This document shows, one piece after another, positions 12,682-40,089 of a stretch of DNA of 40,089 nucleotides. The position numbers and the translations under genes are program-made. Numbering within the stretch: the stretch's first letter is position 1; every line of letters starts with the position of its first letter. The notes under the pieces are model-generated. The model was not told the DNA's origin, ran no database searches, and was given only the letters and a program-made list of their open reading frames with translations. The DNA is taken from the NCBI GenBank assembly GCA_010015585.1, contig ML975155.1; one strand, given 5' to 3'. The DNA comes from Eremomyces bilateralis CBS 781.70. Lineage: Eukaryota.

Positions 12682-12700
12682 TCTTGGCCATTGGATATTA

Positions 12701-14004
12701 AAGTACTAGGACAAAAGTCTGTGCATGCCCCACACCAAAATCAAAACAAGCTGAACAACCACCAATCTTCAACCATCAATATTATCATCAAAATGAGGTC
12801 GTTTGGGCAAGAAATTAGTGGTAATCGACAGAGAAATCGCGAATTAAGCGAACGTCAAAGAGCTGCGATTTTACAGGCCGTTGCGGACGGTAGAACTAAG
12901 GCGGAGGTTGCGGAGGAGCATAATGTCGTTGTTCGCACCGTATACAATACCATCAATCGATGGAACCACCACCACGTCACTGCATCCTTACCCCGTAAGG
13001 GGACCCCCCGAAAACTATCGCGGTCTGACGAACGACATATCGTCAAAATTGCACGTAGATTCCCAAAGATAGAGTATACAGAGCTCCTCGAAAGCGTCGA
13101 ATACCTCCGGATCTCGAAGAGGACTATCTACCGAACCCTTAAGAAATATCACCTTACGAAGTGGCGAGCGAAGGAGAGGCCCCATCTTAGGCCTCATCAC
13201 GTCAAAGACCGGCTCCAATTCGCCCGCGAATTTGTGAGATTCAACTTCTCAAGGACCCACTCTACAGACGAGTGCTCTTATGAGAAAGGGGCCGGCGAAA
13301 AACAGGTTTGGGTATGGCGCCTATATCACGAGGCATACGACCCAAAGATGGTCGAGCCTAAGACCCCTAGCAAGGCGATTTCGCAGATGATTTGGGGCTC
13401 AATCTCGCGTGAAGGGAGGTCGGAGCTGGTGATCATGGACCGCGACGAAGACTCTCTAAGACAGGGCTATTCCGCGAAATCTTACATCGCTGCGTTAGAG
13501 GAGGGGCTGCTCCCTACGTACGAACCCGGGGATGTTGTTATCCAGGATAACGCAAAGATCCACACGGCCAAAATCACCCAGGAATGGCTGGAGATTCACG
13601 GCATCCGGGTCATCGATTGGCCAGCCAATTCTCCGGACCTCAACCCTATAGAACACATGTGGCATGTGCTGAAAACGATGGTCAAGAAGCTCCACCCTGA
13701 ACTAATGCGAATGGGGGCATCAGATGAGACACGGGAGGTAATGAATAAGGCGTTAAAGGAGGCGTGGTGGGCGATCCCTCAGGAGAAGATCCGGGCACTG
13801 ATTGACTCAATTCCGCGACGTTTACAAGCGGTGATCAAGGCAAAGGGCTGGCATACGAAATACTAGGCTAGTACTAATTAGGCAATCAAAAAAGCATACA
13901 CTGATCGCTTCCTCTGCGGTTTTGAGCGTATCTCACGATGGGGGTGGTGGTGGTGGTGAAATCACGTGGTTGACGACCATGCACAGACTTTTGTCCTGTC
14001 AGTG
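12701..14004 (+). mobile_element. Tc1/mariner DNA transposon (DD34E), full length, TA target duplication
   Basis: 20-bp perfect inverted core AGGACAAAAGTCTGTGCATG at 12708-12727 and 13978-13997; outer 7 bp of the 27-bp ends diverged; TA at 12699-12700 and 14005-14006; internal transposase ORF. Confidence 0.9.
12793..13866 (+). CDS. Tc1-type transposase (HTH + DDE, DD34E), intact ORF of 357 aa
   Basis: N-terminal HTH, catalytic STDE, QDNAKIH and WPANSPDLNPIEHMW with 34 residues between D2 and E; C-terminal RRLQAVIKAKGWHTKY. Confidence 0.92.
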   Translation: MRSFGQEISGNRQRNRELSERQRAAILQAVADGRTKAEVAEEHNVVVRTVYNTINRWNHHHVTASLPRKGTPRKLSRSDERHIVKIARRFPKIEYTELLESVEYLRISKRTIYRTLKKYHLTKWRAKERPHLRPHHVKDRLQFAREFVRFNFSRTHSTDECSYEKGAGEKQVWVWRLYHEAYDPKMVEPKTPSKAISQMIWGSISREGRSELVIMDRDEDSLRQGYSAKSYIAALEEGLLPTYEPGDVVIQDNAKIHTAKITQEWLEIHGIRVIDWPANSPDLNPIEHMWHVLKTMVKKLHPELMRMGASDETREVMNKALKEAWWAIPQEKIRALIDSIPRRLQAVIKAKGWHTKY

Positions 14005-19740: not shown

Positions 19741-20071
19741 CGGACGCCGTTTGTATCCACTGGCACTAGGGTGGTTGAATTTCAGTAATTTATATATATT
19801 TCTTCGGGGCTGGTGAGGTTTGGCTGGTGAGATTTTCCCCCCCCGCTTTTGAGATTTTGCCCCCCAGCCGCGGGCAAAAAGGCGCAAAAGCTGTAATTTT
19901 CGTACCGCGTTGTGATTGGAGTCTATTAGTACGCTAACTTGGCGCCACCAAGCCCCTCCCGGCGCTAAAAAGGAATGAACCAGATGGACCGTGTATGGGA
20001 TAAGGTTTCTACAGGCTTCTATAAGAATTACGATATGCATAGAGCCTCTGAGTGGGTATGAGGTCAAAGTA

Positions 20072-21621
20072 CGGAGGACCCCTTCAAAAGTTCTTGCCCA
20101 CGCCAAGACCCCGTAATAAAACCATTCCTAATTAGGATACATGTACTAATGGCTAAGTCCTCCCCATTCGCGTTATCTCAGTCCTTTCTCGTATGGTCTC
20201 TCCCTTCCTTATACTCGTTCCCTCCTTCTAGCTCAATTATCTGTTGAATATGTCGTGGAATCCGCTCAATCCAAGCCTGTACCTTCTCCTGCGGGAGTCC
20301 TTCCCAGCAAGCTTCCCAGGCTTTAATGGCTTCATGCCTATTCTTTGGAGCACCTTTTCTTGTCGTCGCTCTCTTCATGTATGGCCAACATGGCTCGATA
20401 GCATTTAGATCTAGGGAATTCCCGCACCAAAGAAGTCGCTGTACTCCGTACAAATCGTATACTCGTTGCTGTGCATGATGGGCGTGCGACGGAGCTTTAT
20501 CCTCTTGAACAATCGTGTCTGGCCGATCCTTCTGACATTCCTCTACGAAAGGAAATAGCTTCGGAATTAATATCTTTGTCTGATATCGATACCAGTCGAT
20601 TCCTTCTCCTTTCCGTCGAACTAGTTTCCCTGTCTTCTGCGTCCATTTCCAGATTGGCTTTCTGCCAGAGGGATTCCGGAGTCCCATCCTCCTCATACCG
20701 GTCTCAAGTTCCCACTGGTCTCGACGAATAGGTTCAAGCAAGTCGTTCATCTCTTCTAATACCTTTTCCGCGTCGATTTTCTCCTGTTTCGTTTCCGGCA
20801 TCCAGCAATGGCAAGGGCCTTTCTTATCATACGTAAAGCAGGCCCAGAACATAAATTCTGTATATCCTTTCCAACGCTCCCGGATACAGGTCTTTGCAAG
20901 CGCTTCGTCTTTCGTCCTCCATACTCGATAACTACCTCTCCGGTGGAGTAATACGATAGCTGTCTCGTCACTCCAAATAACGTTTTTCCAATCTTCCAGT
21001 GTCCAATGCTCGTGCTCTTTCGCAAACTTCAACCATTCAGCTTTCATCTTCTTCGTCAATCCAGGCTTCCTCGTCGGCTTCGTCTTGTTGAAGCCGGCTT
21101 TCTTGAGCACTCTCCAGATGGTAGACTCGGAGACAATCCAACCGCCTCTACAAAGCTCGCCCGCGATATCAGCGCAAGTCTTCTCCCTTCCATATCGATC
21201 CTGACGCACTTTGGTAAGAACGGTATTCGATAGCTCCTCCGTCTGTTTTTGGGGCCGGCCGGGACGGGGTGCATCTTCTAGCCATTCGTCTCTAATATGC
21301 AGAGGCAGATGATTAGGGTCAAATCCCCGCTCAATTGCACGGGCATAAATAGCATTAATTGTACGCTTTGGAAGACCCGTTTTTTCAGCGATTTCAGCTG
21401 TTGTTTTTCCCCCAATAGGTGACTTAAGAGTAACAATAAGCGCCCGTGTTGCGATGTCAGTATTTGAAGGCATTTCGTAACGTGAGAGAGACTTCATAAG
21501 ATTCAAAATAGGAGCGATGAAGGACAGATTCGATGTACTTAGGATTCCTCGGCTGGTATTGTGGGACTGCCAAGAAAGTGGCGTATTTAGCGTGGGCAAG
21601 AACTTTTGAAGGGGACTTCCG
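20072..21621 (-). mobile_element. Tc1/mariner DNA transposon (DD34E), full length 1550 bp, TA target duplication
   Basis: 32-bp TIRs CGGAGGACCCCTTCAAAAGTTCTTGCCCACGC and CGGAAGTCCCCTTCAAAAGTTCTTGCCCACGC (2 mismatches); TA at 20070-20071 and 21622-21623. Confidence 0.93.
20178..21473 (-). CDS. Tc1-type transposase (431 aa, DD34E) with an insertion in the catalytic domain
   Basis: Start taken at MPSNTDIATRAL; HTH motifs, WKNVIWSDET, QEDKAPSH and NSLDLNAIEPCW (34 residues between D and E). Confidence 0.9.
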   Translation of the reverse strand: MPSNTDIATRALIVTLKSPIGGKTTAEIAEKTGLPKRTINAIYARAIERGFDPNHLPLHIRDEWLEDAPRPGRPQKQTEELSNTVLTKVRQDRYGREKTCADIAGELCRGGWIVSESTIWRVLKKAGFNKTKPTRKPGLTKKMKAEWLKFAKEHEHWTLEDWKNVIWSDETAIVLLHRRGSYRVWRTKDEALAKTCIRERWKGYTEFMFWACFTYDKKGPCHCWMPETKQEKIDAEKVLEEMNDLLEPIRRDQWELETGMRRMGLRNPSGRKPIWKWTQKTGKLVRRKGEGIDWYRYQTKILIPKLFPFVEECQKDRPDTIVQEDKAPSHAHHAQQRVYDLYGVQRLLWCGNSLDLNAIEPCWPYMKRATTRKGAPKNRHEAIKAWEACWEGLPQEKVQAWIERIPRHIQQIIELEGGNEYKEGRDHTRKD

Positions 21622-21666
21622 TACCTCGAATTCGTTCCAGCACGGCGGGTGTTCCATCGCGTAGGG

Positions 21667-26766: not shown

Positions 26767-26972
26767 GATAGAGGACGAGCTGAGCTTTAACGAGGCGGTG
26801 AGGGTGCTGTGCGACCACGCGTTAGTGGGAGTGGATAGGTCCTCTAAAGGAAGCGTTGAGTCTCTGGACTACGGGATGCATAGCTGTGTGCATTCATGGA
26901 CGGTTTATGTGGTCAACCAAGAATGGGATTCAGAGATGGCCGAGGTAGCTCTGGAGTGTGTAGGTAGACATA
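26767..26972 (+). pseudogene. Internal fragment of a fungal NB-ARC/TPR NLR-like gene
   Basis: EDELSFNEAVRVLCDHALV..YGMHSCVHSWT..NQEWDSEMAEVALECVG resembles the winged-helix MH-motif region preceding TPRs in fungal NLRs; no P-loop or start nearby. Confidence 0.6.
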
Positions 26973-27756
26973 CGTTATGTAAGATCTCAGGAGGCCTTCT
27001 ATACCAGTATCTCCTCTCAAAATTATTTACCTCCTCGTAAAAATCCGGATAGAGATCAGCCAGCCGCACCCTCTGAAATCCTACATCATGTGTGCTCCTG
27101 CCCTCTATTACCGGATACCCATCATTAGCCTCGATGTCGTCCAGCTCATCCGGGTCATCGCCAGGCCAGTCAGCCTGTACTATATTTACATATCCCTCAG
27201 CTGGATCGTTTTCCACCAGAATATTGTCGATACTCTCTTTATTAGCCCGAATAAAGTAGTGGTATTTCGGTCTGCTTATAGCAAACAGAATTGAACTTTT
27301 CTCGTTACTAAGATGAGGTTCGGCGGTAATCGGCCCGCCGCCGGATCGCCAGGCCAGAAAATGTTTTCTTAGCTCTGTTGTGCTTGCTTCATTGAAGCGC
27401 TCTTGATCAGCCACAATAGGCCACTCCATATACTTCATATGTTCCTCGTTCCCATGTACCTCTCGGATTGTCGATAGTAGAGCCTCGTTAAAGATTTGAA
27501 TGAATCGTTCCCATTTTACTTCCGAGTCGTACGTCGTTCTGTAGATACGCCAACCCCACCGCTTGTGATTCTGGCCAAGGTACCACCACCGGAGTAGTTC
27601 TAGTTTCCCAGCGGTAGTCCATAAGGGGCCATATCTCTCCCGACGGAGTTTATCTAGTGGAACTCCGTCGAGAGCGGTAATTGCCTCGTCGGTTAATCCT
27701 AGGTCACCGACCGTAAACATACGTCTACCAGCTTCAGCTTCAGCTTCGTCGTCCAT
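26905..27756 (-). CDS. Conserved-type fungal hypothetical protein (WGWRIYRTTY...YRRPP family)
   Basis: Single-exon ORF, ATG at 27756, with the WG.xIYR.TY, F..W, YFI..., DVGFQRV and YRRPP pattern that I recognise from expanded uncharacterised fungal families; the C-terminus overlaps the NLR fragment. Confidence 0.65.
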   Translation of the reverse strand: MDDEAEAEAGRRMFTVGDLGLTDEAITALDGVPLDKLRRERYGPLWTTAGKLELLRWWYLGQNHKRWGWRIYRTTYDSEVKWERFIQIFNEALLSTIREVHGNEEHMKYMEWPIVADQERFNEASTTELRKHFLAWRSGGGPITAEPHLSNEKSSILFAISRPKYHYFIRANKESIDNILVENDPAEGYVNIVQADWPGDDPDELDDIEANDGYPVIEGRSTHDVGFQRVRLADLYPDFYEEVNNFERRYWYRRPPEILHNVCLPTHSRATSAISESHSWLTT

Positions 27757-28044
27757 CCTGGTATTCTGTCCGTAATTTTGAATACGGGCAAAGCTTTGAG
27801 CTTTGTGAGGATAGAAAAAGGAGGCGACAAAAGATTGCTGGAGTCTGTGGGCGCTGCGGAGGCGGGCTCGGCTATTCATGTTCTAGGGCTGTCCGGCTAT
27901 CTTGCGTAGAACTGGGGCCGTCAGGTGCTTCCCTTGGGGCGGTTGATTAATTGTATCTGTGACGAGCAGGAAGCCTCATAGACGAGCATATCTGGGATGA
28001 CGGTTTTATTCGTGATATCGAATCTAAAGAAAGAAAGGAATGAG

Positions 28045-28232
28045 TGTTACGGCACGGTAGCTGGATGCACACAACATACACGTAGCCAAAGGTATTCTAG
28101 ATTAAGCTAAAGAAGAGAACAAGAAAGGGAAGCTTTCTTGTTTACATCGGAGAGGTTGGACTCTGGTTTACTCTTAACCTAATCAGGCTTAGGCTCTCAG
28201 CCTGAGCCAACCAAGGGTTTCAACCCATAACA
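28045..28232. mobile_element. Solo LTR copy 2 (188 bp), TSD ATGAG
   Basis: 184/188 identical to 21667-21854 by manual comparison (4 transitions); flanked by ATGAG on both sides. Confidence 0.93.
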
Positions 28233-28445
28233 ATGAGAGAGAGATGGAGGCCTTATGTGGAGAACTGGGTAGGGTGACTAATTATATCAGAAATAAGAGT
28301 GGGGTACTATGGTTGGGCCTGTAAATAATGTGGATGGCCGCGCTAGCAGGGGCATTGACGCTTTCCCTATAATAGTCGAGAGAAACCATAATAGTGGGAG
28401 AATAAGCGGAAACTTCGCTCGTCTAGAACGTTAGCGATAAGATTC

Positions 28446-28605
28446 TGTCGCAGACCAAGGCATGAGCTCTAGGAGTCCAAGGCTACAAACTGCATTAATA
28501 ATCTTGCCGTGACTCTCGTATATCTGTAGGGCCGGGGGACCAGGCATTCAGCTAGAACACACAACTTACACAACACACAATACAAACAACTTCGCTGCTG
28601 TAACA
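28446..28605. mobile_element. Possible additional solo-LTR remnant
   Basis: TGTCGCAG...CTGTAACA imperfect inverted termini with a CA-rich 3' part; no TSD. Confidence 0.3.
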
Positions 28606-28664
28606 ACAGCACCTCACTCCCAACCATTTTAGCACATGACGTGCGACAATATATTATGCGCGTA

Positions 28665-28942
28665 CGGAGGTCCATTTCAAAAGTTACTGCTCGCCAAGAA
28701 AATGGCTTGATTACATAATCCGTTCGAAAGCCGATAGAACGGGCAGTAGGGTGCCTAGCCAACAGGCCGGCACTAGGCGCGGTAAGTCGAATTCCTGGCG
28801 CCCTTGCTTCGAATTAGGCTCTAAGACATAAACTAAATGCCTAGTTGATAGGCAGTCTAGTGCCCATGGTATCGGCTCTCGCAACTGCTTATATAATCAA
28901 GCCACTTTCTTGGCGAGCAATAACTTTTGAGATGGACTGCCG
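28665..28942. mobile_element. MITE (278 bp) with ~100-bp imperfect TIRs, Tc1-type ends
   Basis: 28665-28768 aligns with the reverse complement of ~28838-28942 (CGGAGGTCCATTTCAAAAGTTACTGCTCGCCAAGAAAATGGCTTGATTACATAA vs CGGCAGTCCATCTCAAAAGTTATTGCTCGCCAAGAAAGTGGCTTGATTATATAA); TA on the left, CA on the right. Confidence 0.85.
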
Positions 28943-29229
28943 CATTCTCAGAATTAAAACAAGTAAAAGAGACGACGGTAGGTCGACCGCTAGAATGGCA
29001 GGCCTGCTTACCGTGCATGCTCATTGGTTGATGCGCATGATCCGAAGATTTCCCACATGCTCTACCCGGTCCGCCTGCTTCGACATCATAGATATATCTG
29101 CCCAATTTCTTGCATACTAACCACAAAATCAACCATAACTCTACGAAAAATGACCAGATCGCTTCTAAACAAAGTTTCAATCGATTTCTTGCCTGATTCT
29201 GTATTAGAATAAAAAATGGGCAAAAAGAA

Positions 29230-29317
29230 AGGTCCTACGCAGATTCGAACGGCGGTTGTCGGAAAGATGAGGATTTGACATCAAAATCCGAAGTGATAAC
29301 CACTACACTATAGGACC
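29230..29317 (-). tRNA. tRNA-Gln(TTG) with a 16-nt intron
   Basis: GGTCCTA acceptor stem, D arm TAGTGTAGTGGTTATCAC, anticodon stem TCGGA/TCCGA with TT-TTG-A, intron TGTCAAATCCTCATCT after position 37, GTTCGAATC B box and downstream TTCTTTTT terminator. Confidence 0.92.
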
Positions 29318-30782
29318 TGTAATTATAGAACAATTCCTGAGTCAAACTCACAACCCCAAAGGAGAAGCGAAGAGTCAGGGAGCTCCATGATTCACGATCC
29401 GTCATGGCATCCAGACCGGACGAAATCGATGCCCTTGGAGCACACCTCCTTTGATTGTTGTTTTTTATTTTTGAATAGTTTGAATAGAATTCGGGTACTC
29501 TGCTGACCGTGTTAGGGATATTTTGATAGTAATTAATATTTTATATGGATGTGTCCTGACAATGTCTTCTGTAATCGCGTCCCACCCCCATTACGAGCGA
29601 GTAATGCAATATTTAGAGCATTTTCTTTACATTATCGCACTGCGCACTAAGGCTTCAGCGCCTCCTAGTCCGGGTTTGGGAGCTCTTTTGGGCTCTTCCT
29701 ACTTGACATACGAACATTCCCTTTCTCTGCTGCGAATACTTCGATCCTGGGGCTCAAAACGTCTTCTACCTCTGCATGTTGTGAATGCCCGCTTGCTTCA
29801 GTCAAAGCTTGCACCTACCATTACCTCATTACTCCATTCTTGCGTCACGCCCAGAGAAGATGTCCTCTATGCGATTCACTTCTCCTAACAGCTCACCATG
29901 TCCAGTTGCCGTGATACTTCACAAGGAGAAGTTGTCGCAAGATGCCCCTGTTGGTTTCTATTGCCACCTAACATTATTCACTGCCCTCTACCCCTGGGCT
30001 AGGCCCAATCAGGACTCTTCAGCCTTCTCCTATGTATTTAAGTTATCTTCATCTGGCTTACTAGCTAGATCTCCTTTTCTAGATACTGGGAACCATTAAT
30101 ACCAATTTGCGTTATGACTCTACAGTAAATGAGCTTAAGCAGCGATCGTGCTTAATCATCATCCCCGCGAAATGCGACAGAAGTACGCTCCTTGAAGCGA
30201 TGACCTGGAAGCAATGAGAGCGGACTTTGCACAGACACAAAATATGTTATCGGTAACTGGTCTACTTGTTACGGTACAACTCCAGTAGTCACTGTTGCTG
30301 CATCCCTCGTTGCTTTATGCGCGGAATCAATCTCATCACAAACAGGGGATGCCACTGCTACGTCGGACGGCACATTATCCATCTTTTCTGTCCCCATCAA
30401 TCGACCGTTAACATTAGAGCCAACTGCCTGATTTTCCAACGACCGACATCGGTCCACTGAGCTAGGATTCCTTCTGAAATCCTGCCTGTCTTCATCGTCT
30501 TCGTGAGCACCGAGCGCGGAAGGACCGCGTTCCAACACACTACTAGAGATTGAGATTCTGGCAGGGCTTGGTGTTGGATCAGGGATGGGACTCCCTCTGG
30601 TGCAAATCCGAGCAACGCGGGGAGGTCGCAGTCCAGGGTCCGAGCGAACTGAAGTCGCGATGGAATTGCCATAGCCAAAGGTTGGAAGATAACTGAGAGG
30701 GAAAACATAGGTCATTCTCTTACTGAAACCAAATTGTAGGGTCGTGTAGTCTGAGATATGAACATGGAATGTTGCTCGTACC

Positions 30783-31906
30783 TCATTCAAAAAGCACATA
30801 CGCTCTGACCTCAACACTCGCTCTTGCTGCTGCATTTGGATCCGCCTTGGGATTGTAGATGCTCACACGCGCAACACCTGATCGAAGAGCCTGTTAGAGT
30901 GTATTGGACATACCATTAAGTCTGAAATCAGGAAAAATAGCCTCACTCACCCCCGGCACCTTCAAGGGCAGAATCAGTCTGTCGAAGTAAGATGACTTCG
31001 TCATCTTCCAAGTCCTTGAAGTAGTACCATTCATGTTTCGGATTGTAGTACAATCGTTCATTCTCTGTAAACCGGTTGGTGAACACCACGTCCGCCACGA
31101 TGCTGTCAGACTTGTGGTCAATAATTCGCGAATCGCAGAGTGCCAGAGGCCAGTCGTTGCCGGGACCTTGAAGGGACTTCCAAACGCTATCAAGTTGAGG
31201 ATGGATTTTCGTAGGAGCAGGGTGGTATTTACTTCACCGTCAGCAATCGTTTATATTCATCTAACTTAGTCGTGAATGCCCGAGCGGTTCGAGCGGCCGA
31301 GTAAGGGGAATAGTCTGGCGGTCTGTGAGCAAAAGACAATATCAAAAAGCGCTGGGACGCTCACCAATATGGACAGCAGTAGCGGACTGAACGGTCTCGA
31401 ACAATTCTTCGCTGTTCGCATTGAACTGCGCATCTCTTTGGCTGACCTTGCCTTGTCACTATGAAATCGTAAATGGTGATCAAGCGGATCAAACATACTC
31501 CATGTTCCAGTACTCGAATCTCAGCTGCGTCGGGGAACATTTGCTGTAGTAATTTCTCAACTGCTGGATAGTACTGCGTCTCTACCTTTTCATCGTCATC
31601 GAATGCCGCCTCGGTCATGGAGCAGTCCACGTTCGCTACCCGGAAACCATATTCTATGAAGCTTCGAGGATCTTGCAGGGGCCGGAAATTACGAATCGTA
31701 ATGGTTCTGAGATCACTCGACATGTTTGTATGGGGAATTACTCCTCCAGTGTCGTATCTCATCTCGTATGGTTTCTCTTCTTTGTGCTTCGCCTCCTTGG
31801 TGAGGTAATTCAGCTCAGTCTGCACATCATCGCTAAGCGTGTCGCTGTATCCGGGGTTTAGAACTCTCATTTTGTCCTTGAATGGGGTTGCGTGTGGTGT
31901 TTCCAT
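30783..31906 (-). CDS. AsaB/CmcJ (GA4 desaturase-like) hydroxylase/desaturase family protein
   Basis: Motifs EKPY, YYP..E, AVHID, NVWKSLQGPGNDWPLALCD, LYYNPKHEWYY, DEVILLRQTDS and RASVEVRAYV. Introns 31447-31498, 31315-31364, 31187-31232 and 30878-30950; stop TGA 30785-30783. Confidence 0.85.
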
Positions 31907-33191
31907 CGTGCTTGTGGTTGTCACTGTTAATAAGTATGGTGATGGAACTTCCGAAGTATTGGACTGGCGATAATAGCGAGTGGATGGCGGAGGCGTCAGT
32001 CATGAAGCGTGAATCGACAATGAGCTCGGAGCATGTATGGATATGGTAGGGCGGGCGATGCAACTAGGATGCATCGGGCAGGGCAAGCGTCTTCGCCCTC
32101 CGTTTTCTTGTCGATTCCGGTGAAAATTCCAGCATTCGTAGCATGTCGCCTTGCCAACACATTCCGCAAAGTGAACAGTCTCGCCTAGCGGGAAGATATA
32201 ACTACGAAGTACGAACCCTAGGCGAACTAAGATCTGCATGCTTATACGATCTCCGCCCCCTCAAAGCGATGAGCGCAGTTCTGCAGCATGCAAGGATACT
32301 AAGGATTTAAGACAGTATGACATGAGGAGGATGTATTCATTTATTGCACAGTTAAAGAAACAGAAACGAAGTAACCTCCCTCCCTGTGTGGCGGGCATCC
32401 CTGCGTAACGGACAAATTCCTAGGTACTTCGATTTCAAAGCAATCCAGGCTCTGCACATACAATTATAATTCCATATCTTTAGATTGATCGTGCTCTACA
32501 GTCATTTCTTAATATGCTAGACAATTTGAATTAGAAAAATATATTGGGGTGGCCGCATTCCCGCCTGGTTTCTGGAAAGTATGTCATTATCCTAGTAGCA
32601 GACCACCTCGATCAGAGCGCCACCCTTATGGTCTTCTTACCTTTAAAACCGATTAAAGACTTTATCCAGGCGTTAAAGTCACATAAAGATATTTAGAACG
32701 TATCATCAACGATGCGTGTGCGATAGCGTACAAGATTGCGCAAGTTCGGCATGCAGGCAGGTACTTCCAATCGAAACGATGAACAATCTTGGTTAGTGCG
32801 GTATGCTTATACAAGCAATGTATATTTGGTCGCCTACAGTCAGTAATGAAATTTTATTTAGTTGTCATAAACTCCATTGCCAAGTATGTGGTCTGTGGCT
32901 GGTGGAGTCCAACTACTTCTGGGGGACGTGGATTTCCCTGCGTGCAGGACCAGGAAACGACGTCGCTAATTATGCTTCTTCAGAACGGCTCTCAGCCGCC
33001 CCACGGAAGTTCTCTCATCAATTCTCGTGATCTAAGCGCTTGGGTCTACTCTAGAGGACCGCGTGCTTTCTATTAACAGCCACATTTGAATCTAGTTCCT
33101 GTAACATGGCGCTGAACCACGACGAAAACTAACCTCCCGCCGCCCAGTAACAACCCGAGAAAAGTGCGTAAGCCGTCCTGCTTCATACAGA

Positions 33192-34750
33192 TCAAACTGG
33201 TCTAGACGATAGATTTCTTCGCTTTCCGCAGGCTATTCCACTGAAGTTTGAAATTCTGGTCCAATTCTCCAGCCATAACCACCAAGATAAAAGGACGAGC
33301 AGAGTGGAAGGGATTACCACCGCCCAGTATATCCAGAACTGGTTAGAGGTCTTCCACTTATCCTCACCAAAAGAGAAAAATGTAGTGCTAAACACTGTCT
33401 ATAAAAAGTTAGCCTGTCCGAGTAGAAGCCTAGGACGTGCGAAAAGTTAAAGCACCTACCGAGACGAACGTCGCCGGGAGAAATGCCATGGTTAAGAATG
33501 CGATTGATTTAATTACCACACTATCTTGACTGGCAATCATATTGTATGCCTACTTGGTTAGCTAGCTCATGTTGCAGCAAACCAAGGAACAAGCATCATG
33601 CGAACCTACCACATTGACTTCAGCATTAAGTCTTTCTTGAGTAGATAATGAGCGCCATTTGAGGCTCTTCATCATCTGAAGTTGGAAGCTCAAACGCTCT
33701 CGCGCCTGTACCAAATATCCATTTCCAAGCTCTGTGGGGAGCGTTTGATGAAGAGCCTCCTGACGTTGCAGCAAGCTTTCGATGGCTTCGATTGCGACTG
33801 ATTCGGTTTCCACGACATGGCTTGTATGCCTGGAAATCTCGTGCATCGTCATGAAGTCTGGCCGGCGCTTTAGTCTATTCTTTGAAAACATTAGTCTATG
33901 ATCAACTGCACAATGCAACCAAAGTACCTCTTCGATCGCCCGCACCGCGTCTCGCGCTCGCCAAGTGCTCTCGTCATATAGTTGGATGATTTCGTTGAGG
34001 AGGGGGTCGAGCATTGCCAAAGGATCCCCAAGATTGAGTGGTCGCGGCTTGTTGAGGACTGCTTGGAGACGCTCGCGTAGCGTATCTGGTGTGCCGATGC
34101 AGAGCACTCTGCAACGATGTGGGTGATACCAATATGTGAAGCATGTCATTTCATACCACAAGTAAGGATTCCCATCAGGGACCCTCTCTTCCTCGGGTTT
34201 TAAAACCTTTTTTACCAAGCATTGAAACCAAATCCCTACATCACGAAGGCGTAAATGGATTGCCGCGTTTAAGCAGATTCGACTGCAGATCAGGAGAACG
34301 TACTAAGGTCTACCAGTTTCCCGTTATCGTCAAGTGCGCTCTTAGAGCCCAAGTAACCGTTGAGATCGGTACATAGCTGGTTGGAGAGAAAGTCCGGCAC
34401 GTTAAAAGGCGCCAGCATCCTTTGCCGGTCGTTTTCGGTGCACCGCCTCTTGTATAAATCCTTGTCTTCAAGGAAACTAGAGAAATATATTCAGCCAAAA
34501 CTTCACGATTAATATTCTCTCGTCCTACATATAACATATTTCAGGGAGATCAGGATTCTATATCACTGTTAGTCATATACTAGGCAAGGCTGCATGTGGC
34601 ACCGACATCAAGAAGGTCGATCCGACTCAAACTCCACGCATTTCCGACTGCCAGTCCGACATAAGTGGACTGTCACCGCTCTGGTCCTCTGAACTTACTG
34701 AGGGCTAAAGCCATTGCGAAAGCGTGCACCACGGGAGGTTTCGATGCCAT
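33192..34750 (-). CDS. Fungal CorA-like membrane protein (two C-terminal transmembrane helices), multi-exon
   Basis: Coiled region then QDSVVIKSIAFLTMAFLPATFVS / VFSTTFFSF..FWIYWAVVIPSTLLVL, typical of fungal CorA-like proteins. Several GT-AG introns; the 5' exons and start at 34750 are tentative. Confidence 0.7.
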
Positions 34751-35437
34751 TCTTCACCGATTTTCGCTGTTGTGTGAGAAAAGCCGACACGGTTAGGTGG
34801 TTTCCAGAAATGGTTCCAAAGCTCGGGGTAATTAAGAATGACAGTGCTTCTCAATGTCTATGTAGACCTAGAGGCAAGAACGTGAGAGGAAAAGCATAAG
34901 TCGTGTTAAAGTGTTGGATAAGGCTGTCGACAGGGAGTGGGCCGTGGACTCACCAGGGCAAGTCGAGCGATATCATGTTTTCCAGTGCTTCTTTCTCCAT
35001 CCAATGAGACGTTCAGCGAGCCTCGGGACTCGTTCAACGTGGCTTGCATAGATTCATGGGCACATGCAGGAGGAGAGCGCGTTTAGTTTTGGATGACTGG
35101 ATGAAGCGTTGTAGGGTTGTGGATGGCCAGTGATTTGAACCGTCCTACCGCCGCGAACCAACAAAATGGGCCCATTTTCGGCTCCACGCTTGAAACGATG
35201 TCCAAGGCCTGCAGCCAAAAATAGGTTCGATGGTTTTAATCGTGCCTTCGACCAGTTTCTTGCATGCTACGGAGAGCGCTCGAGATTACGATGATTCTAT
35301 TAAGAAATAATATCGCTTAACCTGGATGAGTCGTAGTGCCGCGTCTGGTTCTATAGAGAGTCTATGAGCGGCCGCGTGTTCTCTAGAATTATTGCCTAGC
35401 GCCTCTCGCTCGTTCCTCTCCCATCACTATCGTCGAA

Positions 35438-37120
35438 ATGGATCGAGCCAGTGAGGTGCTGGATGAAGGGCTTTACCCAGATGCACCTAAAACATACGCT
35501 GCCCTAGCAGGATGGGGCAACGTCCCTCGCTCTACCTTGTGGCATCGTGCACACGGACGGCGGTCGAAAGAAGAGAAGGCCCAAAGCCAACAGTACCTCA
35601 CCCCATCGGAAGAGAAAGCCCTCGTAAAGTATCTGTTACGAATGTCGAGGAATGGATATCCTATTCCGGTTAAGTATCTAGGCTCGCTAGCATATATCAT
35701 GGCGCGTCGGCGCTCCTCCGCCGTTCAGCCTTCGGGAACGGACGAAGCAACCGACCCTCCCGGCAAGAACTGGCCTCAGGCCTTCCAGAGACGCCATCCC
35801 GAGCTCAAAGCGAAAAGGGTCAAGGCACTAGATTGGAATCGACACGATCATAATATCTACGATAAGATCATACACTGGTTCGAGGTGATCGGGAAGGAAC
35901 TACATGACCCGGTCATTATGCCGGAGAATGTCTATAATATGGACGAGACGGGAGTTATGTTAAGTATGCTCCGCTCTCTCAAAGTCCTGGTAGGTAAAGA
36001 TGACCTGCGAGATTATAGAGGCACGGGAGTCAAGCGAACGGTAGTAACTGCGATCGAGTGTATATCCGCAGACGGTAGGTCTCTTCTCCCAATGGTCATC
36101 TGGCCAGCTACAACCCACCGAAGCAACTGGACCACGTACCCCACCCCTGGATGGCATTATGCATGCTCCGAATCTGGCTACACCGATTCCAAGATCAGCC
36201 TGGAGTGGCTTAAACGTGTGTTCGACCCCCAAACCAAAGCACAAGTTCATCAGAAACCACGGATTCTGATTTGCGACGGCTTCGGGACGCACGAGACCCT
36301 TGAAATCTTGGAGTACTGCCTTGAAAATAACATCATCTTATGTCGTATCCCCTCTCACACCTCCCACAAGCTCCAACCCTGTGACGTCGGAGTGTTTGGC
36401 CCACTGAAGACCGCCTATCGGGATCAGGCTGAACGCCTGTATCGAGGAGGAGCAAATACAGTCGGCAAGGAGCATTTCACGTCTCTCTACGGCCCTGCGC
36501 GGGAAAAAGCGCTCACTTCTCGCAACATTAAAGCAGGGTGGATCAAGGCCGGGCTGTATCCATTCAGCCCGGAGAGGGTGCTAAAGGATATCCAGAAGCC
36601 GCTCGCCGAACTAACTGTTCCGAAAGCCGATAAGGAGAAGGCGGGATTATATCCGCAAGGCGATGTACTCGAGACGCCAGTAACAGTAGAGGCTCTAAGT
36701 TCGTTGCGTAGCCGGATCGAACAGGATGCTCATATGCTTGACGGTCCGGGCAAACAACGCCTTCAGAAGCTGGCAAACGCCGCCCAAGTATCGTTTGCTG
36801 AATGTGCCCTTCTTCTCGATGGAAATCAACTTTTGTTTCAACAGAACAATGAAGCTAGACGTCGCCGATCGACCAAATCCACGGTAGTAGGGAAGGCGAA
36901 AGTGATGAGCTATGACATTGAGGAAGCGCGAGGGAAGCGTGCTGCGAAAGAAGCTGCGAAAGAGGTTACGGCGGCTTCAGGAAAACGTGGCCGGAAGCGA
37001 AAAGGCCCTGCGCCAGCGAGAGCGAAGGCTAAAAGGACACGGAGGAACGAAGCAGAGATTGCGGAGGATGAGATTGCCGCAGCAGGCTTAGAGAATTACT
37101 GCTCTGTTCTCCAACTTTGA
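35438..37120 (+). CDS. pogo/Fot1-family transposase (HTH + CENP-B-like + DDE_1, DD35D), intact 560 aa
   Basis: VPRSTLWHR, QYLTPSEE, PGKNW, VYNMDETG, LICDGFGTH and HTSHKLQPCDVGVFGPLK with 35 residues between D2 and D3; basic C-terminal NLS-like tract. Confidence 0.93.
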   Translation: MDRASEVLDEGLYPDAPKTYAALAGWGNVPRSTLWHRAHGRRSKEEKAQSQQYLTPSEEKALVKYLLRMSRNGYPIPVKYLGSLAYIMARRRSSAVQPSGTDEATDPPGKNWPQAFQRRHPELKAKRVKALDWNRHDHNIYDKIIHWFEVIGKELHDPVIMPENVYNMDETGVMLSMLRSLKVLVGKDDLRDYRGTGVKRTVVTAIECISADGRSLLPMVIWPATTHRSNWTTYPTPGWHYACSESGYTDSKISLEWLKRVFDPQTKAQVHQKPRILICDGFGTHETLEILEYCLENNIILCRIPSHTSHKLQPCDVGVFGPLKTAYRDQAERLYRGGANTVGKEHFTSLYGPAREKALTSRNIKAGWIKAGLYPFSPERVLKDIQKPLAELTVPKADKEKAGLYPQGDVLETPVTVEALSSLRSRIEQDAHMLDGPGKQRLQKLANAAQVSFAECALLLDGNQLLFQQNNEARRRRSTKSTVVGKAKVMSYDIEEARGKRAAKEAAKEVTAASGKRGRKRKGPAPARAKAKRTRRNEAEIAEDEIAAAGLENYCSVLQL

Positions 37121-37642
37121 TACAGATCCGACTTAATGTAGGAAACGCCAAGTGTCTTCGAGACCCGTTACTATATAGTAGGGGGTTGGTTTTCGTCGTG
37201 TATTCGGCGCCATGTTACAGGAACTCCATTCAAATATGACCATCTGAAAGGAAACGATCCAATACCCTTGGTCCGAGCGCTTGGATGACGAGAATTGTCA
37301 ATTGATGAGTGTAGAAGTGATTGGCGAGAGCCAATTCTGACCAGAACGCATTGTCACTTGCGATTCGACGCCACGCATCAGCAGCAGCCGTATTTCTGTC
37401 CGACCGACCAGCCAGATGCGTGTATAAACGCCCGGCCAAGGCGCAAAACGCGAGGCTAAGGTCGCAGAGAACAAGCTGTGGGCTGACCGGAACGAAGCGC
37501 AGCCTTGTAACAAAGGTTATAATGGCGGCCTTTCTTCGCCGGTATGCCCATAGTTATCATTCTTCAAGTCAAGCTAGTGTTTATCCTTCATTAAGTGAAG
37601 CCCAGAGGCATTGTTCGATATTTTGACTGATGCTCGAGCAAG

Positions 37643-40089
37643 ATGGCACCCCGGCTCCGACATAACGATTACACGGTGGGCTGGGTCTGTGCCTTGCCGG
37701 ACGAGCTCACCGCAGCGCAGGAGATGCTGGACGAAGAGCACCACGACCTCCCTCCGAGCGGCAACGATACGAATATATACTGTCTAGGCCGCATTAGCGA
37801 GCATAATGTCGCTCTTGCCTGCCTGCCTGCGGGTTTCATAGGCGTCGCCTCCGCCACGGCCGTTGCTATGCAAATGAAGTCTACTTTCCCCGCCATTCGG
37901 TTTGGACTCATGGTGGGGATCGGAGGCGGCGTTCCAGGCAAAGACGCTGATATCCGTCTCGGGGATGTTGTTGTTAGCCAACCAGGGAAGGGTCATGGTG
38001 GGGTGATCCAATACGACTTTGGAAAATCGACGCCTAGCGGATTCGAGCGGACGGGGTTCCTTAACGCGCCACCCCTAGTACTTCTTAATGCGGTCACGAA
38101 GCTTCGATCCAACCAACGCCGAGGAAGAAACCGTCTCTCGCTACATCTATCGAAGCTTAGCGACCTCCCCGATTTCTCCCGCGATAAAGCAGAAAGTGAT
38201 ATGCTGTTCGAAGTGGGGTATAATCACGTTGGAGAAGATAGCTGCGTATCATGCGTACCGACAAGACAAATACAAAGGGAGGATCGGGCAAACAGCACGC
38301 CTATGGTCCACTACGGCACGATCGCATCAGGCAACCAGGTGATGAGGGATGGGACTATAAGAGACCAGATCAGCTCGGAGTTCGGAAGAGTGCTCTGTTT
38401 CGAGATGGAGGCGGCGGGCCTAATGAACAACTTCCCCTGTCTAGTGATCCGCGGCATCTGCGACTACTCCGACTCGCATAAGAATAAGAGGTGGCAACCA
38501 TACGCTGCAGGAACGGCGGCAGCGTACGCGAAGGAGCTGCTTTTGATTATTCCTGCGGCGGAAGTGGCGAAGACGCAGACGATTGATGAAGTAACGCGAG
38601 GTTAGTATCGCCATCGAGTTTATATAAGGCAATTGAACTTATTTGCTATAGAGTATCTTCCTTTCTCACGAAATCGAAAGTTTGTTGGCCGAGACACCGA
38701 CCTTGATGCGTTAAAAAACAAGCTCTTCATAAGCAAAGAATGCCAGAAGATGGCCCTTGTTGGCCTCGGTGGTGTCGGCAAAACACAGATCGCGCTCCAA
38801 TTCGCGTACTGGGTTAGAGAAAATCATCCAGATTTCTCTATCTTCTGGTTACCGGCGCTGAGCATGGAGACGTTTGAGCAGGGGTGCACGGAGATAGCAA
38901 GAGCGCTAAGGATACGTCAGTCGGAAGACGGCAAAGAAGATGTCCGGAAGCTAGTGCAGCAACGGCTCAGCGCGAAGACCAAAGGCAAGGGCAAGTGGTT
39001 GCTAATTGTCGATAATGCCGACGACATGGACCTCCTCCGCGGCGTAGAGGAAGAGGAAGGCTTATTGGACCTTTTGCCCCAGAACGACAACGGTCTAACT
39101 TTGTTTACCACCCGGCACAACGAAGTTGCGCAGTTAGTGGCCGGTAGCGATATGGTTGAAGTCGAAAAGATGGAAAAGGAGGAGGCAATGAACTTGCTGA
39201 AGAAATCCTTAACCTTAAAGCGCCTGCCCAACGACGATGGGCTTATGACGGACCTTCTCGTTGAACTAGACTATCTCCCCCTAGCTATTACCCAAGCGGC
39301 AGCATACATCAACACAAACAGAAGCTCCATCTCTGAGTATCACCGGTTACTTAAGAGCTCAGAGCAGGACGCCATCGCGATGATGAGTACTGAATCCCCC
39401 GACAACACACGATACAAAAAGTCGGTGAACGCTGTAGCAAAGACTTGGATAATCAGTTTTAATCAGATTCTTAAGCATGATATAGTGGCAGCAGACCTTC
39501 TTGCCTTTATCTCGTGTATCGAATGGAAGGCGATCCCATACTCAATTCTACCTGCTGTTCAGCCCGAAGTACGGATGGCGAGTGCCATCGGCACGCTTTA
39601 TTCATACTCGTTCCTGGAACGAAGAGAGGACGGTAAGATGCTTGATATGCATAGGCTTGTCCATTTATCAACGAGAATATGGATCAGTCAGAGGGGCCGT
39701 GAAGGAGAAACAAGTAAGGCGGTACTGAAACGCCTCTCGGAAGTTTTTCCGTGTGACGATTACACGCATCGTGAGATCTGGAGACAATATCTGCCGCATG
39801 CGGCGCGTATAGGGCAAATCGAGCAATGCCAAGATACCGAGGAGAAGAGCGAGCTCTGTCTGAAGGTAGGGCGATGCCTATACGTTGATGGGAGGATAAA
39901 GGAAACTGTCGTCTGGCTACGGGAGTCTTGCGAGTGGAGGGATAGAAATCTTGCTGAAGATGACGCAGATCGATTGGCGTCGCAGCATGCGCTTGCCGGA
40001 GCATATCAAGCAAACGGACAGGTTAAGGAGGCGGTCGATCTACTGGAGCGTGTTGTCGCGATACGAGCGGAAGTGCTCGCAGAAGACCA
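37643..40089 (+). CDS. Fungal NLR-like protein: PNP_UDP (nucleoside phosphorylase) - NB-ARC - TPR; 3' end outside window
   Basis: Exon 1 has YTVGWVCAL, GLMVGIGGGVP, DIRLGDVVVS, HYGTIASG, CFEMEAAGLMN and IRGICDYSDSHKNKRWQ. After intron 38601-38651, exon 2 has FVGR, P-loop GLGGVGKT (38762-38785), WLLIVDNADD, TTR, YLPLAITQAAAYI, MHRLVH and TPR RLASQHALAGAYQANGQVKEAV; open to the window end. Confidence 0.93.

Follow-up and report, generated by a model that had tools for sequence, protein, structure and literature searches.

Fot1/pogo elements are DNA transposons of the Tc1/mariner superfamily. Classical Fot1 is about 2 kb long with terminal inverted repeats (TIRs) of 40-90 bp, and some pogo transposases have been domesticated as host genes, among them CENP-B, the fission-yeast Abp1/Cbh proteins, POGZ, and TIGD. 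A member of this group was found in a 40,089-nt stretch of Eremomyces bilateralis CBS 781.70 (contig ML975155.1; hereafter the window), where an intact transposase gene lies directly upstream of a gene for a NOD-like receptor (NLR; NOD, nucleotide-binding oligomerization domain). The right edge of the window falls inside the NLR. The element is similar to Fot1/pogo in its DDE_1 domain, its DD35D spacing, and the TA found at the termini of its relatives. Its family differs in having terminal regions of ~0.4 kb and an inferred length of 3.3-4 kb, and the window copy is without terminal regions. Like the domesticated pogo genes, the window transposase has lost its ends, is single copy, and is under purifying selection. 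Unlike them, it keeps the catalytic triad, and its closest relatives include ordinary and broken copies (the L002 open reading frame (ORF) breaks at codon 215).

Other mobile elements have been connected to fungal NLRs. Starships are giant cargo elements, from tens to hundreds of kb in size, whose movement depends on a tyrosine recombinase. As in the window, NLR genes are linked to a mobile element in Pezizomycotina (PMC13449251, PMC9815663), but the window has a DDE enzyme and contains the housekeeping genes THO2 and histone deacetylase 12-35 kb upstream. Carriage of NLRs by transposons is already in print (PMC9815663). ToxhAT, a 14-kb class II transposon that carries ToxA (PMC12506042), is a precedent for cargo on a fungal class II DNA transposon; it moves as a defined unit, whereas no ends were seen around the window NLR. 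In Podospora anserina, the flanks of NLRs with high internal conservation are 23.4% transposon compared with 2.4% for random genes, and duplication through flanking transposons or direct mobilization has been proposed (PMC13449251). The window is similar in having a repeat-conserved NLR in transposon-rich flanks; the Podospora work covers overall transposon content, whereas the window case concerns one particular DDE family. Moreover, DNA-transposon remnants co-occur statistically with PNP_UDP_1 genes (PMC6416283). N-terminal domains and NODs assort combinatorially in fungal NLRs, with a mean of 46 NLRs per genome (PMC4986451).

Fungal NLR repertoires show fast turnover and free domain mixing, and the mechanism is not known. 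In the literature searched, supplements aside, no description was found of a pogo-NLR link, of a bias to the 3' side, or of a conserved transposase-PNP_UDP junction. Three things are added here to the reported general enrichment of transposable elements and to Starship carriage. One DDE family lies beside NLR/HET-type genes in most annotatable loci, usually with the NLR 3'; the transposase has stayed joined to a PNP_UDP exon across a long divergence; and downstream of this junction the NOD-repeat part has been swapped. The window copy is read here as a stranded, single-copy, end-less family member that was joined long ago to an NLR 5' module in a transposon island, and not as a TIR-bounded cargo transposon. 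A probability of roughly 0.55 is given to this reading.

The transposase gene (35438-37120, plus strand) is a stop-free ORF of 560 aa with a Pfam DDE_1 match (E 3.2e-33). With D169, D280, and D316 as its catalytic residues, it has the DD35D spacing. HTH_Tnp_Tc5 reached 18.9 bits, under the cut-off of 22.2, and PF03221 is present in the precomputed annotation of some relatives. More than 1100 related proteins were found in databases, the best at 75% identity, and the named ones are from Pezizomycotina. Three sequencing runs (X1, X3, and X4) were compared with the window as contigs; the RNA label of X3 is a guess, though a spliced joint is present in it. In X1 the exact contig of the transposase has a depth of 167.7, compared with 149-166 for single-copy neighbours, so, judged from contig depth, the genome has just this one copy. 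No second transposase was found in the window. An exact X3 contig spans 35887-37647, and the X3 contigs have the same transposase-NLR arrangement as the window. X4 could be aligned only to conserved genes and short pieces of the transposase, being too diverged elsewhere. In trans, the enzyme may still be active on other copies.

A PNP_UDP ORF (37643-38605) begins 522 bp after the transposase stop codon on the same strand and is followed by an NB-ARC/TPR ORF (38633-40087) that is open at the window end. Two X3 contigs join 38598 to 38650 across a 51-nt GT..AG intron, and the spliced frame stays open for 798 codons, so the two ORFs are one NLR gene. Exon 1 (37643-38598, plus strand) encodes the PNP_UDP domain (PNP_UDP_1, E 2.1e-08). 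The intron lies at 38599-38649 as placed by the contig joint, and a cut 2 nt rightward fits equally and gives GT..AG. Exon 2 (38650-40089, continuing past the window edge) encodes NB-ARC (E 2.2e-16) and the first TPR repeats (TPR_10, E 5.7e-08). Effector domain, NOD, and repeats are therefore found in one gene whose C-terminus is outside the window. The first-pass annotation of this DNA had described an intact DD35D transposase followed 522 bp on, on the same strand, by a PNP_UDP-NB-ARC-TPR NLR, and with this the ORFs, the Pfam matches, and the spliced frame agree. Presumably its function is that of an ordinary NLR; DNA derived from the transposon lies within 300-520 bp of the start codon.

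Contig joints provide some further observations on this gene. Those at 39871-40089 have a period of 123-126 nt, which suggests that highly similar TPR repeats begin at the window end. Other joints in X1 and X3 connect 37526 to 26772, 37464 to 37652, and 37749 to 38388; by these joints, paralogous loci elsewhere in the genome share NLR upstream and PNP_UDP sequence. One of these loci is joined to a paralogue of the ORF at 26905-27879 (minus strand), which is without a Pfam match.

The anatomy of the family was derived from a metagenome scan that gave 79 loci with flanks of at most 4 kb, by comparing copies whose flanks differ. In the relatives the left terminus, at 585-1137 bp upstream of the ATG and with different flanks, is TA followed by ACGTCC[G/C]TCC and a conserved terminal region of ~0.4 kb; most relatives' termini bear TA. 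On the other side, a family-specific 3' block follows the stop codon directly in L001, L003, L007, L037, L061, L064, L066, and the window. In L013, L018, L047, and L048 the terminal region then recurs in inverted form, at most ~1.7 kb downstream of the transposase match; normally the family right arm reaches 0.8-1.7 kb past the stop. From these pieces, complete elements would measure 3.3-4 kb. No TIRs were found when the window and 31 relatives were searched up to 900 bp from the ORF, but this span was too narrow for right arms that reach 0.8-1.7 kb. A self inverted-repeat scan of 62 loci gave an ORF-flanking pair in L046 and L066 only, and neither is the family terminus. A right-end motif at 6297 in L022 was rejected as chance, being an 11-nt match without a TA flank. 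Tandem or nested family copies are suggested by the single contig of L055, where two forward terminal regions stand 2.5 kb apart, at 821 and 3343.

Compared with this anatomy, the window copy is truncated on both sides. On the left, family homology begins at 35366 by comparison with L001 (its position 928) or at 35392 with L004, which leaves a proximal 5' leader of 72 bp (35366-35437, plus strand). The region 35100-35437 scored 10-16 against the family terminal regions, where shuffled sequences reached maxima of 17-20 and positive controls 52-57. On the right, the 3' block (37121-37345, plus strand), with a palindrome at 37163-37186, is kept. Family sequence ends at ~37345. The stretch from there to the NLR (37346-37642, plus strand), made up of spacer and the upstream region of that gene, is common to L001 only and occupies the place expected for the right arm. 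About 2.0 kb of family sequence remains, from ~35366 to ~37345.

It had been noted earlier that no inverted repeat closes the element between its stop codon and the NLR, and this was confirmed: 0 of 17 inverted pairs in 34000-38000 bracket the ORF, and no TIRs bracketing the element were found within the window. A left end had been proposed at 35140, with its reverse complement not visible in 37121-40089. The latter point held, as the best match of 35139-35198 scores 18 compared with a shuffle 95th percentile of 22. The left end itself fared less well. The string at 35140-35175 (plus strand) does exist and has ~12 nt in common with the family terminus, but no canonical terminal region is found there. 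Nor was a TA target-site duplication seen at the window copy; GA precedes the proposed left end at 35139, and no right end was found within the window.

A second copy of the family, without an ORF and in the opposite orientation, was found at 32374-33190. Its parts are a terminal region, then a middle stretch, and last the 3' block in inverted form. The terminal region (32374-32799, plus strand) begins, after TA, with ACCTCCCTCC and is the outer end of a reverse-oriented right arm; it is similar to the terminal regions of L003 (E 3.5e-12), L047 (E 6.8e-14), and L001. The 3' block (32980-33190, minus strand) holds the left arm of a 120-nt inverted repeat (33019-33137 and 37181-37297, 74% identity, E 3.5e-14) that the first-pass annotation had not listed. 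This repeat is present because 32374-33190 is the right arm of a second family copy. From this fragment, the right arm in the window's subfamily holds no NLR.

These observations bear on the possibility that the element has kept its mobility and that its cargo is the NLR or, at the least, the PNP_UDP module of that gene; its left end would then be degenerate and its right terminal region would lie beyond 40089. From the stop codon to the window edge no right end is present, which favours this explanation, as does the intact transposase with its catalytic triad complete. Because flanks are limited to 4 kb and the window edge falls inside the NLR, a right end past an NLR of 3-5 kb would not be visible here or in most relatives. 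The missing canonical left terminal region speaks against it, as family homology starts only at 35366, and so do the NLR-free right arm at 32374-33190 and the single copy number of the element in its genome. Among relatives, no inverted terminal region was seen beyond the NLR/HET gene in L008, L054, and L056 within the 0.8-1.7 kb visible.

The age of the junction was revealed by a relative with the same arrangement. Window positions 35366-38606 align to L001 928-3993 as one continuous block, 71.9% identical over 3272 columns, in the same order and on the same strand. Within it, the spacer (37121-37642) has 200 of 334 aligned columns identical. The PNP_UDP exon has 80% amino acid identity to L001 3030-3989, with a synonymous divergence (dS) of 1.20 and a non-synonymous/synonymous divergence ratio (dN/dS) of 0.101; for the transposase the values are dS 0.90 and dN/dS 0.154. 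The flanks of L001 differ from those of the window on both sides of the shared block, and in L001 the terminal region of another element lies, the wrong way round, 135 bp upstream of the ATG. Since the same junction is found in L001 at dS ~1, the joined block (transposase, spacer, and PNP_UDP exon) is old. The homology stops at the end of the PNP_UDP exon. After it, L001 encodes NPHP3_N/NACHT and the window NB-ARC-TPR, so the NOD-repeat part has been exchanged since the junction formed. This later exchange fits the combinatorial assortment of domains reported for the NLRs of fungi (PMC4986451). For the cargo explanation, the co-divergence of transposase and PNP exon between window and L001 is favourable, but the end of homology at that exon and the different NOD domains behind it are not.

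The same comparison raises the possibility that the window gene is a domesticated pogo transposase that the host retains for a role linked to the adjoining NLR, such as its regulation or the diversification of the locus. Both ends are lost, and the gene is single copy and, if X3 is RNA, transcribed. Its dN/dS is 0.154 across dS 0.90, its junction with the PNP exon is common to L001, and even the spacer is 60% identical in aligned columns. Yet the junction was seen in just one other contig, whose orthology is putative, and the ORF could also have stayed open through conversion from active copies, a possibility suggested by the pattern of L017 and L019 described below. Moreover, NLR-linked copies are scattered among ordinary ones on the transposase tree (L017 is 90% identical to L024, which bears a right-end motif), and the type, strand, and side of the neighbour differ between loci. 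Taken together, domestication appears rather unlikely.

The linkage to NLRs extends beyond these two loci. The flanks of the relatives were scanned for ORFs of at least 185 aa (122 of 251 ORFs, unique), and neighbours were called NLR/HET-type if they had PNP_UDP, NACHT, NB-ARC, HET, SesA, or Patatin domains, or arrays of TPR, WD40, or ANK repeats. The first-pass annotation had proposed to tabulate the neighbours of other family copies; in the metagenome, NLR/HET-type neighbours were found in 22 of the 34 unique loci with at least one Pfam-annotated neighbour, a count that takes in L021 (by tblastn only) and matches to WD40 alone or ANK alone. Non-NLR neighbours occur too (e.g., L024/L044 and L047), and 12 of the 34 loci have unrelated neighbours only. 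Against a null of 0.2 per locus, the count of 22 has a p of 1.8e-08. On the transposase tree the NLR/HET label is scattered: across 31 labelled rows it changes 9 times, which is as often as it could. The NLR/HET neighbours lie downstream of the transposase in 17 cases and upstream in 5 (p 0.017), and the type, strand, and side of the neighbouring gene vary from locus to locus. In addition, two of the three long database proteins found are transposase-NLR fusion gene models, from Cladosporium fusiforme (a complete transposase, then NB-ARC-TPR) and Pseudogymnoascus australis. The linkage of this transposase family with NLR genes is real and not a product of chance.

Several of the neighbours were observed in more detail. 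A complete-looking HET-NACHT-WD40 NLR lies directly beside the family copy in L022/L023 (2829-6463, minus strand), SesA with TPR repeats (and NB-ARC by tblastn) in L025/L026 (2993-6166, minus strand), and a Patatin-NB-ARC-TPR NLR in L013 (2-2432, minus strand). Tandem repeats of 126 nt are present in some of these NLRs, in numbers that vary from one assembly to another. A gene in L068 (8020-9000, minus strand) has PF17111, shown as PigL_N, and a ubiquitin-like domain, and was not counted as NLR-type; PF17111 is the former Helo_like_N domain of STAND proteins.

The family-wide count is also the evidence on a simpler explanation, an ordinary old insertion that has decayed ends and happens to lie beside an NLR, the pairing not being specific. 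Transposons and NLRs of high internal conservation share islands in Podospora (PMC13449251), and the 12 annotated loci with non-NLR neighbours only also favour this explanation. The window itself is repeat-rich from 27.4 to 37.3 kb. Word depth in X1 rises to 8080 at 27.4-30.8 kb compared with ~150 for single-copy sequence, and these high-copy repeats (27400-30800) mark a transposon island with the histone-deacetylase gene on one side and the NLR on the other. Coincidence does not account for the same junction in L001, with both genes equally diverged, nor for NLR/HET linkage at p 1.8e-08, nor for the fused gene models in two named fungi. A mean of 46 NLRs per genome likewise speaks against chance adjacency (PMC4986451). 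We regard coincidence as quite improbable.

Closely related copies are informative on whether an NLR can move with the element. L017 and L021 have a uniform identity of 94-99% over 4.2 kb of transposon and NLR, and their left flanks lose all likeness precisely at the terminus. By contrast, L017 and L019 are 95% identical in the transposon and only 72-74% in the NLR part. L024/L044, of the same subfamily as L017, have a right-end motif ~500 bp past the ORF match and a non-NLR neighbour, and L047 combines a non-NLR neighbour with an inverted terminal region. The first-pass annotation had proposed that the right TIR lies beyond the NLR, making the element a cut-and-paste vehicle for NLR genes. 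The part of this proposal that concerns the family gained from the 22 of 34 loci, the L001 block, the L017/L021 pair, and the fusion models. As a description of the window copy it was not sustained, since this copy has no left terminal region, its right arm is replaced from ~37345, its homology to L001 ends at the PNP_UDP exon, and it is single copy. The L017/L021 identity and the prevalence of NLR/HET neighbours on the 3' side, that of the missing right arm, favour cargo; the divergence of the NLR part in L019 disfavours it. Overall, a still-mobile element with the NLR as its cargo is quite improbable at this locus.

Under the preferred reading of a stranded copy, the following history would apply. 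The element would have landed in a transposon island beside an NLR locus, and its ends would then have been lost by deletion or by ectopic recombination with neighbouring copies, such as the fragment at 32374-33190. The right arm (middle stretch and inverted terminal region) has been replaced by the 5' flank of a spliced, probably expressed PNP_UDP-NB-ARC-TPR NLR, and the NOD-repeat part downstream of the junction was exchanged afterwards.

Some results weigh against this reading. The transposase is open with a dN/dS of 0.15 across dS ~0.9, which is unexpected for a decaying, end-less, immobile remnant. An ORF intact at this divergence without ends calls for selection, for conversion from active copies, or for some mobility. 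The stranded-copy reading does not explain it, and a domesticated gene, a still-mobile unit, and conversion from active copies are all kept alive by it. The transposase tree pairs the window with L062 (support 95) and not with L001, which weakens a simple joint inheritance of the block with L001. The L017/L021 pattern resembles the movement of a unit that includes the NLR. Both terminal regions were found on one locus in 0 of 62 loci examined, so the two-ended anatomy is assembled from different copies. When near-copies are collapsed, the excess on the downstream side is reduced to 14 compared with 5 (p 0.064). Finally, the neighbour count covers this one transposon family, and in it the general sharing of islands by transposable elements and NLRs is not separated from a trait of this family.

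A broader role of the family was also considered. Copies without a right arm could mobilize or recombine the DNA 3' of the transposase. In this way PNP_UDP and other N-terminal modules, or even entire NLR/HET genes, would reach new sites and come to stand ahead of different NOD-repeat modules. That the family is a vehicle for NLR building blocks in this sense is unlikely. If true, it would be a mechanism for the domain shuffling and copy-number turnover of fungal NLRs, and the block of transposase and PNP_UDP exon, with NB-ARC-TPR here and NACHT in L001, would be one such event. A mechanistic link would make NLR shuffling testable; if the link is merely one of shared transposon islands, the locus is ordinary.

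Other features of the window lie between and beyond the two family pieces. An unrelated gene, a 218-aa ORF at 33562-34218 (minus strand), sits between them. It has no Pfam match, and a search among proteins of 383-2000 residues gave as sole match a 391-aa Talaromyces rugulosus protein with a CorA-like PF01544 domain at 39% identity. The ORF is covered by X3 contigs at a depth of ~120. A degraded second transposase in 33190-35140 was considered and rejected: no tblastn likeness was found, and the ORF there resembles the CorA-like protein. Further upstream, two Tc1-type elements have paired ends. The one at 20055-21638 has 52-nt inverted ends of 83% identity around a Tc3-HTH ORF on the minus strand, and the one at 12691-13997 contains a DDE_3 ORF and a perfect 20-nt inverted repeat (12708-12727 and 13978-13997).

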